DNA of 22,676 nt, taken from positions 36,702 through 59,377 of the forward strand of contig JBBIPP010000012.1 of NCBI GenBank assembly GCA_037442745.1, in the 5' to 3' direction. The notes under the pieces were generated by a model, which was not told where the DNA came from, ran no database searches, and saw only the letters and a list, made by a program, of their open reading frames with translations. Positions 5,541 through 15,373 of this stretch are shown piece by piece. Positions within the stretch are counted from its first letter, which is position 1. Each line of letters begins with the position of its first letter. A program made the position numbers and the translations under genes. This DNA comes from an archaeon. Its GTDB lineage: Archaea > SpSt-1190 > DYHY01.

Positions 5541-5720
5541 CATAAACAACTAAGACTTGTTAGTCTTGTAAGAGGTTTATGTTTCGTATGTCATATTGAA
5601 CTCGGGGCGCGCCCCCGCAAGCGGGGACCCCGCGGGACGGGACGAGAAGAAGCGGACCGGACCGATAAAACAGGAGAACTTCAGGAACCACGCGTTCCGT
5701 TCCGATGAGAATACCGGAAA
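5541..5720 (+). repeat. Left composite inverted repeat (putative recombination/binding site array)
   Basis: Blocks match the reverse complement of 15219-15373: 5569-5584 (15/16), 5617-5644 (25/28), 5652-5673 (19/22), 5698-5720 (20 matches with 2 single-base gaps). Confidence 0.85.
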
Positions 5721-5767
5721 GCTGCACCGCGACCCTAAAAAAGCCATTCAAACAATGATTCGACGTT

Positions 5768-6895
5768 ATGTGGGCTCTGACGCGCAAATTGGAAAGGTTT
5801 ATCAAAAGGGCGCGTGGGCAAAAGGCAATGGTCGCAAGAGAGTATGTGGAGGTTCTTCAAGGGCTTTGGCCAAAAAACAAAGCAAAGGGGTTGCTGGCGC
5901 AATCGAGACTCGAAGAAGGGATTGCTTCGAGGAGATTCGGGCGTGACGCCGGCGAGAAATTCATGCCGGGTTGCTGGCTGGTCTCCCCAAAAGAGCCCAA
6001 CTTTCATCAATTCAGATTCTGCTTCTTCGTTCATCCGACTCATCTGCGCCCCGGCGCCAACTTCGCCATCCGAGACCTCCTTGGAAACAAGTTCAGACCG
6101 TTCAATGCGCTCGCCGAGTTCATGAACAACGCGGCCATAAAGGTAGTGTATGCTGTGCCCTTCTGCGAGGAACTTCCTCTTCAACAACTGGCTCAGAAGA
6201 ACTATGGCGGGCTGGAATGGCGAATCTTCTTCTTTGAGAACGGGAACTTTGTCGAGACTACGCCCCGAGAACTATTTGACTCTTGGCCCGGAAACAGAGG
6301 GAGACCCGGACAAGGCAACCCGTGGGACGAAAGCACTATACGGGATTTCCAGACAGTTCCGGAAGAGCGCCTCGAATCTTTCGTTCTCAGCGAGGTTTTT
6401 TTCAGTGGGTTCTTGAAAGCCACACACAGAAAGCCAACCTCCGACCCCTATGATGTCGACTTCTTCTTGGTCAGCCTTTCACAAAAGCACCTATTCCCAA
6501 TCTAGGTAAAGGAGAAAAGCCCCTTTGGAGACGAAGATGAGCGATTTTTCGGGATAGATGCAGGAAGGATAATGATGCTATTGCGGGTATGCCTTCCTAA
6601 CGATGCGAATGCGGTTTATCTTATAAGAGAACTCAATGACAACGGGGATTTCGTTGACTGGAAATACATAACCCTCGGAGATTTGATAATGTCTGCCGGG
6701 TGGAACCTTCAAGCGGGTGGCCCTGGTATGGGAGGACAGGCCACACAAACTGTCAAGATTCCTTACGGAGAATTTCAGACTCTCGACGAGCGGGCCCTTT
6801 CGGAAGAGAATCTCAAAAGCATAGGAAACCTGCCTAAGGAAACCAAGGCAATTGCCCAGAGACTACGAGAAGGATTGGACGCGAGGTTCGGTTGA
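5768..6895 (+). pseudogene. PD-(D/E)xK type II restriction endonuclease interrupted by one in-frame TAG
   Basis: ORFs 5768-6505 and 6572-6895 are in the same frame. Read-through gives PYDVDFFLV...LFPI*VKEK, with TAG (6503-6505) at the E/Q-x-K catalytic position. Directly upstream of a C5 MTase. Confidence 0.75.
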
Positions 6896-6896
6896 T

Positions 6897-7892
6897 TTGA
6901 CAAATGAACCGAGATTCATCGACCTATTTGCGGGAATAGGCGGGATACGAATAGCGTTCGAACGTGCCGGGGGGCGGTGTGTCTTCTCGTCAGAATGGAA
7001 CAAAATGGCCCAGAAGACCTATTTCGAGAACTTTGGCGAAGTTCCTGCGGGGGACATCCACGAAATAAAGTCTTCGGAACTTCCTGAGTTCGACATCCTG
7101 TGCGGAGGGTTTCCGTGTCAACCTTTCTCCATAGCAGGAGTCTCGAAGAAGAAGAGCCTAAACAAGCCGCACGGCTTCGAGGACCAAGCACAAGGAACCT
7201 TATTTTTCGAGATAATCCGATTGTTGAAAGAACGAAAGCCCGCCGCCTTCTTTTTGGAGAATGTCAAGAACCTCGAACGGCACGATAAGGGAAAAACCTT
7301 CAAGGTTATTCGAGGCGCCCTTGAAGAACTCTGTTATTCATTCTACTACAAGGTAGTAGACGGCGCCCTTCTCGTCCCACAGCACCGGGAACGGGTATAC
7401 ATGGTCGGTTTCCGAGACAGGACCCTCGATTTCGTGTTTCCGGACATTCAAGACACCCATCCGAAATTCAAGGACATTCTTGAACATTCGATTCCTGAGA
7501 AATATACTTTGACCGACCATCTCTGGGAATATCTGCAAAACTACGCGAAGAAACACAAAGAAAAAGGCAATGGTTTCGGGTTCGGCCTTGCGAATTTAGA
7601 GGGAGTCACGAGGACCTTGTCGGCGAGATATTACAAAGACGGTAGCGAAATACTCATCCCCCAAATCGGGAAGAATCCTCGACGACTGACGCCTCGTGAA
7701 TGCGCTAGGTTGATGGGCTTCCCCGAGACTTTCAAGATAAAAGTATCCGATACCCAAGCATACAAGCAATTCGGCAACAGCGTCGTTGTGCCTGTTGTTG
7801 AAAAGATAGCAAAACAGGTTGTTTGGACCTTGAAGGAGAAACCAAAACGAAAAACGCCCTACTCAACTCAAAAGAGCCTTTCGAATTTGTGA
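6897..7892 (+). CDS. dcm: DNA (cytosine-5)-methyltransferase, Dcm/M.EcoRII/M.SsoII-like (CCWGG or CCNGG probable)
   Basis: Motifs [60 protein letters not shown]...[15 protein letters not shown] typical of the Dcm family. Start taken as TTG at 6897, just after the REase stop (ORF track begins at 6852). Confidence 0.93.
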
Positions 7893-8271
7893 GATATATT
7901 TTTGTGGCGTCTTTCTCAAAGAATGCTCCCTTATTCTGATGACCTTCCATCCTGAACGCCTAAGGAGGGATGTCTGCTTGCGGTCCCGCCTAACGTTTGA
8001 ATCTACCTTATTTTTCCAAAAATCTCGCCTCGTTTTCGGTAAAAGGAAGCATTTCAGACATTTGTGCCAGAAGCAACCGTCTACAAATACCGCCACCTTT
8101 TTTCGCGGGAAAACAATGTCCGGGCGCCATGTGATTCTTTTAGGGTGAGTTGAGAATTTTAGGCCGTTTTCCCTCAGAACTCACTCTTTGGAAGCGCCGT
8201 TCGAGTTCCGTCTAAGAGCGTATGTTGGACATTATCTCGCTGCGCTTCTTCTTGGATAATATGTCGACCAT
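7863..8271 (-). pseudogene. vsr: Very short patch repair endonuclease Vsr, with a nonsense codon and a frameshift
   Basis: ATG at 8271 gives MVDILSKKKRSEIMSNIRS* (TAG 8212-8214). After a frameshift near 8180 the sequence reads RPDIVFPRKKVAVFVDGCFWHKC...FWKNKVDSNVRRD...GWKVIRIREH. Confidence 0.9.
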
Positions 8272-8339
8272 GACCTTTATTCTAAATCGCTGGTTAAATT
8301 CCTTTTTCTAAGATTACCTCCACGCGCTTCAGGGTTTGA

Positions 8340-14140: not shown

Positions 14141-14247
14141 CTTCCGAGTGTGACTTTATTCTATTTACCGGAAAGGGCCTGTGTTTGTGGTTGATTTTGC
14201 CGTATTATCGTGCAAAATTTAAATTCCGTGACGATTTCTCGTAACGT

Positions 14248-14634
14248 ATGAGATTAATTGTAAACAGCCGGGGGCTTGTAGATTTTGAAGCCCCAATTAC
14301 GATGAATGAAGAACAGAGGAAAAAACTCATTGCCTTCTTCAAAGCCAGATTCCCAGAAACAGAAGTAATAGACGTTGCGGAAGTGAGGCGCTATGCCGGG
14401 GAACGCGAACGCACTTTGAAAAGCTGGTCTCCGAAAGAGTTTGCGTTAATACTTTCATCGAAGACAAACGACGAAATAGCCCAAATAACGAACCGAACTG
14501 AAATGAGCGTCCGGATGAAGCGCGGAGATTTCTTTCCGGCGTTTTTGAACTGGATGCGCAAAAAGGGGCTTTCTTACGTTCCCGACAAGAATTACGAAGA
14601 TTTGATAGCCACATATCTCAAGGAGGTAGCGTAA
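14248..14634 (+). CDS. Hypothetical protein with a Myb/SANT-like HTH; paralogue of the next gene
   Basis: WSPKE...EIAQITNRTEMSVRMKR Myb-like pattern. Confidence 0.65.
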   Translation: MRLIVNSRGLVDFEAPITMNEEQRKKLIAFFKARFPETEVIDVAEVRRYAGERERTLKSWSPKEFALILSSKTNDEIAQITNRTEMSVRMKRGDFFPAFLNWMRKKGLSYVPDKNYEDLIATYLKEVA

Positions 14635-14635
14635 G

Positions 14636-15217
14636 ATGGTCACAATAATGATAGGGGACCGCCAAAACGTTGATTTTGATGCGCCTGTTGAGCTCACACC
14701 CCAGCAAAAAGAAGAGTTTGTCTCTCTTTTGAAGAGTATTTTTGATGTTGTTGAGGAGGTAACTTCTGACGAAGTTCGACTTGACCGACTCGGAGACAAG
14801 AACTTTTCCAAAGGATTGTCCGAATCAGAGCTTGAGTCTCTGCTATCTGATAGCACAACTGAAGAACTGACCCAGAAACTCGGAAGGTCGTGGATGAGTG
14901 TTGATATCAAACGAGGGTGGTTTGTTCAATATTTTCTGGAATGGCTCGGTAAAAAGAAGCTCACAATGACCAAACAGAACCTTCGCTCACTTGTTTCACA
15001 GTTTTTGAAGGAACGCGAGGAAGCACAAAAGAGCGCGCGAGAAGTCCGGCGCCAGCAAAGACTAAACAAACGAGAGAAAATAGAAGATTTGGAAGCAAAG
15101 GTCAAACAGCTTAGAAAACTGATTTCTGCGGGATTCCATAAGAAGAACAAACAGTATGAGAACGCTGAGACTGACCTTTCTGACGCGCTCAAAGAACTGA
15201 AAATGGAGGAAGAGTAG
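14636..15217 (+). CDS. Hypothetical protein, paralogue of 14248-14634 plus a C-terminal coiled coil
   Basis: Shares VDF(E/D)AP, EVR, MSVxxKRGxF...FLxW..KK; AGGAGG at 14621-14626; charged helical tail. Confidence 0.7.
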   Translation: MVTIMIGDRQNVDFDAPVELTPQQKEEFVSLLKSIFDVVEEVTSDEVRLDRLGDKNFSKGLSESELESLLSDSTTEELTQKLGRSWMSVDIKRGWFVQYFLEWLGKKKLTMTKQNLRSLVSQFLKEREEAQKSAREVRRQQRLNKREKIEDLEAKVKQLRKLISAGFHKKNKQYENAETDLSDALKELKMEEE

Positions 15218-15218
15218 T

Positions 15219-15373
15219 TTTCCGCTATTTCTCGGAACGAAATGCAATTTTCCCGACTTTCGTCCCCTTTCCACGTACCGTCCCGCTGGGTCCCAGCTTG
15301 CTTGGTTCGGCTGGTTTTTCGGTCCGATCCGCGAGCCCGGTTTAAGAAAACTTAAACCTCTTAGTAGTTTAAG
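15219..15373 (-). repeat. Right composite inverted repeat
   Basis: Reverse-complement counterpart of 5541-5720; includes CTTAAAC-N9-GTTTAAG (15351-15373) and GCTGGG-T-CCCAGC (15285-15297). Confidence 0.85.

Follow-up and report, generated by a model that had tools for sequence, protein, structure and literature searches.

Tyrosine integrases and restriction-modification genes have been found together in genomic islands. In the account of Furuta, Abe and Kobayashi (2010, PMC2853133), islands integrated at tRNA genes carry both and end in long direct repeats of the 3' part of the tRNA, and restriction-modification units are also described that have unit-specific imperfect inverted repeats (60/65 and 26/26), 8-bp duplications and an empty site in a sister genome. 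Inversion of DNA by archaeal tyrosine recombinases is likewise established, as the cases presented in PMC8371274 illustrate (the phiCh1 invertible region, the IntSNJ2 assays and the pTN3 integrase). Here, we analyze a stretch of 22,676 nucleotides from an archaeal genome (GenBank assembly GCA_037442745.1, contig JBBIPP010000012.1, positions 36,702 to 59,377 of the forward strand; the whole stretch is called the window and is numbered from its first letter), in which two diverged, oppositely oriented copies of one noncoding module of 150 to 180 bases bracket a 9.7-kb island beside a tyrosine integrase gene and a tRNA-Cys gene.

The locus combines aspects of both forms described in PMC2853133, without the direct tRNA repeat of the first or the target duplication of the second. 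As in the tRNA-integrated islands presented there, the integrase gene lies beside a tRNA gene and the cargo comprises a type IIG gene, a type II methylase gene and hypothetical genes; however, no attR was found here, and inverted composite repeats bracket the cargo instead. As in the transposon-like units, imperfect inverted repeats that are unique in the genome surround restriction-modification genes with no recognizable transposase inside, whereas the repeats of those units are contiguous and the ones seen here consist of four separate blocks in permuted order, with no duplication. With the archaeal invertible segments presented in PMC8371274, the locus shares a tyrosine recombinase beside inverted sequences that have identical stretches in common, but for those segments, either the two orientations or the reaction had been observed directly, and here a single orientation is seen and the sites are unlike paired core sites. 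The initial annotation, made from the sequence of the window, had called this architecture unfamiliar among archaeal elements, and full-text literature searches and the archaeal recombinase review (PMC8371274), supplements aside, likewise yielded no account of an archaeal island surrounded by inverted modules that are composite and permuted.

Two further kinds of system bear comparison. The attC sites of integrons are folded single-stranded recombination sites. One follows every cassette of one or two genes, all are directly oriented, and they depend on an IntI-type integrase. The modules resemble them as imperfect palindromes near a tyrosine recombinase, with conserved stems that end in AAAC...GTTT and conserved unpaired bases, and function through one folded strand would apply to them too. 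Unlike attC, they are two inverted sites around about 14 open reading frames (ORFs), and the integrase scores 43 bits against a cut-off of 265 with the integron-integrase model TIGR02249 and 41.3 bits against 435 with NF011946, the N-terminal part alone matching. By analogy, attC sites would be the nearest functional counterpart if the modules are folded-strand sites. The ends of Tn916-type and Tn7/Mu-type elements are built from one short site repeated several times, and the recombinase gene lies inside them. The modules have in common with these ends the imperfect inverted repeats at the termini and the additional subterminal sites (protein-binding sites in the transposons), whose arrangement within about 100 to 150 bp differs from one end to the other, but each end has a single copy of each of four different blocks here, and the integrase lies outside.

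The left module (5541..5720) starts 25 nt after the integrase stop codon, which ends at 5515, and the right module (15219..15373) is separated by 1 nt from the last cargo ORF, which ends at 15217, so that the two lie 9.5 kb apart in inverted orientation; their proposed folding strands are plus and minus, respectively. Each is built from blocks that we term D, A, B and C. On the left, these are extended D (5541-5584), A (5617-5644), B (5652-5673) and C (5698-5720), and on the right they are C' (15219-15239), A' (15274-15301), B' (15311-15332) and extended D' (15348-15373). Block A is identical at 25/28 positions, B at 19/22 and D, compared at the word level (5569-5584 with 15348-15363), at 15/16. 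The left order is D-A-B-C, whereas the strand-reversed right copy reads D-B-A-C, with A and B swapped, and the D-to-C spans are 152 nt on the left and 145 nt on the right. Direct reading and a repeat finder agree on the inverted blocks, and the identities, swapped order, spans, gaps to the stop codons and position of the integrase outside the bracket that had been given in the initial annotation were all reproduced. Block D proved larger than annotated, since 5541-5555 plus 5574-5584 match 15373-15348 at 23/26 positions, with an 18-nt insert (5556-5573) in the left copy alone. The two longest inverted repeats of the window, 5617-5644/15274-15301 (I1; 28 nt, 89%) and 5557-5584/15348-15375 (I2), both come from module blocks. 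Identical inverted words of 11, 9, 8, 8 and 7 nt are common to both modules; in direct orientation, no word longer than 7 nt is shared by 5516-5770 and 15201-15480, and the best match over the full right intergenic stretch is 10 nt.

As a chance control, the left intergenic stretch was compared with the reverse complement of the right one, using 300 dinucleotide shuffles of the left stretch. The best ungapped match scored 19 against a shuffle maximum of 14, and the top three matches summed to 45 against a maximum of 35; neither value was reached by any shuffle (0/300 in each case). In a blastn-short search of all 20 contigs that make up the genome (1.136 Mb, 94.5% complete), both modules returned reciprocal hits only, the remaining matches being at most 18 nt long or having an E value of at least 0.59 (including 48 nt at 81% on contig C14, E 7.9, and 25 nt at 88% on contig C3, E 2.0). 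Since the block match beats the shuffles and the blastn-short hits are reciprocal only, the repeats are real, nonrandom and not dispersed; the genome-wide dispersal that the initial annotation had raised as a counter-possibility is not seen, with two copies in the genome. The block patterns were derived from these two copies, so that pattern searches of the genome show only absence elsewhere. The exact pattern of block A gave no match in the genome, viral and metagenome contig collections, the 28-nt block A with up to three mismatches was found in its own genome only (1/17 phylum genomes and 1/401 relatives), and blocks B and C had no match in the viral contig collection. No other instance was found in any collection searched.

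Four stems, which coincide with the conserved blocks, can be drawn in both copies. The stem of D has 7 bp and closes loops of 27 and 9 nt, A forms a hairpin with a 5-bp stem and a GAC loop, and C forms a 5-bp stem with loops of 10 and 8 nt. In addition, a helix of 12 positions, two tandem G.A steps among them, joins the 3' half of A to B across connectors of 8 and 34 nt; because this A3'/B helix is identical whichever strand comes first, the swap of A and B keeps it. Between the copies, 4 of the 29 proposed pairs differ, and all 4 still pair. Both sides have changed in one pair of D (A-T to T-A) and one of A (G-C to T-A), and the A3'/B helix shows G-C to G-U and G.A to U-A. The blocks are 86 to 94% identical and the spacers between them are unalignable, and this alternation makes uniform neutral decay of a duplication unlikely. 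The 18-nt left-only insert falls in the D loop and forms its own nested hairpin. RNAfold predicts the A3'/B helix in both copies, and its duplex energies in the two copies are -14.9 and -14.6 kcal/mol for the D-to-C strand versus -7.7 and -6.7 kcal/mol for the opposite one, a difference of about 7 kcal/mol; it is the only strand-specific stem of the four. A simple inversion of A-B was rejected, since it would turn the GA steps into TC, unlike the right copy. The periodic motif CGGNNCGGNNCG and its complement together have 15 occurrences genome-wide, which is about chance, and 5 of these 15 lie within the two modules.

Because the stems are conserved while loops are free, the strands are permuted and the noncanonical pairs are strand specific, the reading that we tentatively prefer, at a probability clearly short of even, is that the modules are a pair of folded cis-acting elements of the island, made of RNA or single-stranded DNA. 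In this reading, the island is an old, decaying integrative element inserted beside tRNA-Cys, with the integrase at the tRNA side and a cargo of restriction-modification remnants and low-GC accessory genes, and the two diverged module copies bracketing this cargo both face inward. Their active form would be a folded single strand, either RNA transcribed inward or single-stranded DNA, from the plus strand on the left and the minus strand on the right, and would comprise hairpins formed by D, A and C together with the A3'/B helix and the tandem G.A pairs in it. Selection would have kept the stems while loops, spacers and strand order drifted. Candidate roles include the control or stabilization of transcripts entering the cargo from either side and a processing or recognition signal; folding, transcription and role alike are deduced from sequence. 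If the modules indeed work in cis as folded strands, they would represent an undescribed structured element of archaeal mobile DNA and a rare case of two element copies that keep a helix despite swapped strand order. As a single instance in a decaying island, they are mainly of value as a precise, testable lead.

Several observations weigh against folded elements. Whole-module folding z-scores are modest (-2.7 and -2.0, with -2.6 for the opposite strand of the left module), and minimum-energy folds replace the A hairpin by other structures. The GC-rich pentamer repeats make many competing helices available, among them a perfect pairing of the 3' half of A with the tandem CGTTC repeat at C. Three of the four stems are perfect DNA palindromes, which are also expected of double-stranded protein-binding sites. 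With only two copies, the covariation argument rests on four pairs and was drawn up after the sequences had been seen, and no further copy of the module was found to add to this single instance. Block D (TTTAWGTT) matches the tRNA promoter box of the genome, TTTATAAA, in part only, with no convincing promoter, and no clear terminator follows either module; a scan for bacterial-type promoters and terminators stayed at shuffle level. Rfam 15 gave no match at gathering thresholds in the window, and over both modules a limit of E = 10 brought chance-level hits only. By eye, the modules were also compared with the consensus features of hammerhead, C/D-box, K-turn, dif-like, ORB-like and parvovirus-style flip/flop elements, and all of these readings were dropped.

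The palindromic stems (three perfect duplex palindromes among four) make a strong rival of double-stranded binding-site arrays for one or more DNA-binding proteins, for example the helix-turn-helix (HTH) or winged HTH (wHTH) proteins of the island, with two regulatory regions in which site order is free; we give this explanation a lesser but appreciable share of the probability. The perfect 13-bp palindrome within block A (5621-5633) is of the type expected for dimeric regulators, and C has the form of an inverted repeat. Tandem pentamers that place CG every 5 nt are present in A, B and C, a permuted order is ordinary in site clusters, and at least two weak HTH candidates are encoded by the island. 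However, the half-sites of C are 10 versus 8 nt apart and the arms of D 27 versus 9 nt, which changes the helical phase, protein binding would not call for the symmetric double substitutions seen in two palindromes, and the right module, placed after the last gene and pointing toward its 3' end, has no obvious promoter to regulate. Somewhat less probable is that the modules are a relic without function, namely, homologous intergenic sequence, now decaying, that was left by an old inverted duplication within the island or by the fusion of two related mobile elements in opposite orientation. The island is clearly decaying, with three broken genes, its two-part GC content fits a fusion of two elements, and the modules have no other copy in any collection searched, yet neutral decay should be roughly uniform, and here the conserved blocks alternate with spacers that differ in length as well as being unalignable. 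Moreover, all four differing stem pairs stay paired, the swap of A and B requires an extra rearrangement, and a decayed second integrase was not found beside the right module. Elements such as repetitive extragenic palindromic (REP) sequences and bacterial interspersed mosaic elements (BIMEs) usually sit behind stop codons, and the modules, which are hairpin-rich mosaics of variable block order, begin 25 and 1 nt after stop codons, in the manner of BIMEs. Mosaic intergenic repeats of this kind, or ones resembling miniature inverted-repeat transposable elements, that arrived with foreign DNA are nevertheless very improbable, since there are two copies in the 1.136-Mb genome, block A is absent from the genome, viral and metagenome contig collections and, with up to three mismatches, from 400 other archaeal genomes, and blocks B and C lack a match in viral contigs.

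The initial annotation had proposed that the adjacent integrase inverts, excises or captures the bracketed segment. Stated for the modules, they would be recombination sites, or terminal inverted repeats with accessory sites, by which this integrase inverts, excises or mobilizes a 9.7-kb cassette, and we now regard this as improbable to about the same degree as a relic. Several features fit such sites, namely, the inverted orientation, the outermost position of the best-conserved block (extended D), as in transposon ends, the 7-nt inverted arms around a 9-nt spacer in the right D, which resemble a simple core site, the identical stretches of 7 to 11 nt usable for strand exchange and the intact-looking integrase 25 nt away, and archaeal tyrosine recombinases do invert DNA in the examples cited above (PMC8371274). 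However, D is the sole core-site-like palindrome, and its arms are split by a 27-nt loop on the left versus 9 nt on the right. Both modules are bridged, in the reference arrangement only, by two assemblies at contig level (X1 and X2) that come from a single study, possibly the source, although contigs cannot show minority forms; a third DNA contig run of that study (X3) contributed no contig, and no rearranged joints at the modules were found. There is no target-site duplication at the bracket flanks (CCCCTCAA and AAAAGTTT; the flanks compared were AGGTCCCCTCAA on the left and AAAAGTTTAAAT on the right) and no direct core of more than 7 nt shared between the regions, and the strand-specific G.A and G-U features are unexpected for duplex recombinase sites. 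The proposed link of the repeats to the integrase clade was not borne out either. In 4 of the 6 homologous loci, a tRNA gene (Glu, Glu, Ser and Cys) immediately precedes the integrase gene and shares its orientation, so that the clade behaves as ordinary tRNA-targeting integrases, and a multi-block inverted repeat after the integrase, scored as at least two co-located inverted matches, was found in none of the 6, with the window positive as control in the same script; at identities of 32 to 45%, this is weak evidence. Metagenome contigs held one locus with an integrase relative (34% identity), which has no comparable repeat, and viral contigs held no close relative. The contig, homologous-locus and flank results give no support to inversion, excision or capture by the integrase and weaken the recombination reading, and integrase crossover at the modules is not needed to explain the data. 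A more elaborate version, which we consider doubtful and less probable again, is that the modules are a new cassette-end signal, that is, folded-strand sites, circularly permuted between the ends, that would be recognized in trans by the zinc-ribbon integrase or a host factor and would let the 9.7-kb segment invert, leave or exchange independently of the integrase-tRNA module, loosely like attC but with paired, inverted, multi-helix ends. If the modules are recombination sites, they would belong to a cassette system served by a large, uncharacterized family of zinc-ribbon integrases.

The integrase gene (4235..5515, plus strand) starts 71 nt after the end of the tRNA-Cys gene (GCA; 4090..4163, plus strand, predicted by ARAGORN) and has the same orientation, and the tRNA is presumably the attachment side of the island. 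Its open frame encodes 426 aa with a PF00589 domain at residues 161 to 322 (E 1.4e-22; 80.7 bits against a cut-off of 27.1, and 81.7 bits in the whole-genome scan) and a C-terminal zinc ribbon (Zn_Ribbon_1, E 0.0017). Candidate catalytic motifs, picked by eye from the translation for the residues R, K, HxxR, H/W and the Y nucleophile, are ARIGE, GKTGSRR, HHFRHSRAT, GWVGS and ERYVHL, and as judged from the translation, the protein looks intact. The best PDB matches are XerA-like chains, and the HxxR stretch aligns with the same motif of such a chain. At 426 aa, however, the protein has extra N- and C-terminal regions, and it scores 81.4 bits against an equivalog cut-off of 220 with the archaeal XerA model NF040815; therefore, we regard it as an integrase and not as XerA. 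Its family contains 1204 proteins at E <= 1e-20, mostly about 395 to 400 aa long, the named members being mainly from Micrarchaeota and other archaea, and the best nonself identity in a large protein collection is 43%. Matches occur in 26 of 61 genomes and in none of the 4 genomes of the same order. Within its own genome, the integrase is the sole full-length PF00589 match, the other match being a 43-residue fragment (C10:49599-49727). With the queries used (the PF00589 scan and the integrase search), no XerA-type resolvase was seen in this genome or in the comparison genomes G001 to G004.

On the tRNA side, a partial 5' end of tRNA-Cys, a 20-nt exact copy of 4090-4109, stands at 3964..3983 on the plus strand, 126 nt upstream of the complete gene. 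This copy, which has the ancestral upstream region, looks like an integration or deletion scar. For attR, no direct word of at least 10 nt from 4090-4240 recurs downstream in the window, 9-mers are at chance, and blastn-short found none; the 9-mer TCCGGGCGC at 8119 was inspected as a possible attR copy and judged to be chance. In the same-genus genome G001 (locus L018, 13970-14260), two partial 5' copies stand before that genome's own tRNA-Cys, on a contig that ends 228 nt after the tRNA. A small contig in one assembly run (X2) carries a variant of the stretch upstream of tRNA-Cys. Together, these look like scars of recurrent integration or deletion 5' of this tRNA.

The initial annotation had described the bracketed genes as a defense cassette, and the theme holds, with a C5 methylase, a vsr gene, a type IIG gene, a candidate restriction gene and a DUF5655 protein resembling PDC-S18, but the cassette is not intact, its restriction genes being mostly broken. 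One in-frame TAG at 6503-6505, a position at which a homologue encodes glutamate, splits the candidate restriction gene (5828..6895, plus strand, about 355 codons). Its two ORF pieces (5768-6505 and 6572-6895) both align to single homologues of about 360 aa, in the case of P0002 with 49% identity over residues 6 to 229 and 61% over residues 253 to 358. These homologues are hypothetical proteins with 30 to 51% identity, the few with a named source coming from bacterial metagenome-assembled genomes (MAGs); no match was found in 400 other genomes, and an Atlas lookup of a homologue gave no function and a sub-threshold PD-(D/E)xK lead (0.81). Because it adjoins the C5 methylase gene, and judging by position alone, this first cargo gene may be the restriction partner of that methylase. 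The C5 cytosine DNA methyltransferase (6852..7892, plus strand) is intact (PF00145, E 5e-91; PADLOC MTase_II/DrmMII), and the pair looks like a recently silenced restriction gene with an orphan methylase left behind.

Next to it lies a 5'-truncated vsr fragment (7863..8096, minus strand) that covers profile positions 61 to 121 of 156 (PADLOC Vsr, E 5.8e-14, with weak Pfam matches); its 3' end overlaps the 3' end of the methylase gene on the opposite strand. The type IIG restriction-methylase remnant (8340..9701, minus strand) consists of four frame-shifted ORF pieces (PADLOC PDLC03604, E 2e-15, 2.1e-22, 4.8e-13 and 2.4e-10) that span profile positions 7 to 358 of 1011, the first 36%, and the remainder is missing. 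Because three of the four clearly restriction-related nuclease genes are broken, we regard the locus as a decaying island and not as an intact cassette. A block of low-GC ORFs (0.36 to 0.43) without a firm family follows at 9860..13030, with a weak DUF4364/wHTH candidate at 10658-11167, a Csa3/CasR-like HTH candidate at 12105-12710 and a DUF3467-like ORF at 12608-13030. The GC content of the island is 0.47 to 0.52 up to about 9.5 kb and 0.36 to 0.43 from there to about 15 kb, and this composition suggests two DNA sources inside one bracket.

The DUF5655 protein is encoded at 13106..14140 on the plus strand (PF18899, E 9e-8) and resembles the PADLOC candidate PDC-S18 (E 6.4e-12). Last in the cargo is a tandem pair of paralogues of 128 and 193 aa (14248..15217, plus strand) that belong to an unnamed family with the conserved motif LGRSWMSVDIKRG and no Pfam family. 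The pair recurs in four MAG loci from Thermoplasmatales, Thermoplasmatota and Pacearchaeota (L029 9965-10962, L030 2486-3483, L031 1315-2312 and L032 1109-2081), where other genes directly follow it and no modules lie next to it, and it looks, by this recurrence, like a mobile two-gene module.

Beyond the right module, a stretch of 765 nt (15374..16138) contains no ORF of at least 80 aa and no integrase remnant, and the right border of the island probably falls within this flank, for which neither Rfam nor the four nearest genomes gave a match. The stretch separates the right module from a membrane glycosyltransferase-like gene. The nearest genome, G001, is 52 to 64% identical at the protein level, and synteny with G001 to G004, which have only the upstream membrane-protein gene and a RuBisCO-like gene in common with this locus, is too weak to define an empty site. 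The RuBisCO large-subunit-like gene (17624-18874, minus strand) lies just outside the island, and its G001 orthologue is 64 to 67% identical, with neighbors that are not syntenic. Elsewhere in the genome, contigs C4 and C15 both begin with a tRNA-Leu at the same offset (positions 13-97), and two tRNA-Ser genes (C6 31606 and C7 1990) have nearly identical 60-nt upstream sequences; these tRNA-Leu contig starts and tRNA-Ser duplicates may be assembly break points or duplicated contig ends.

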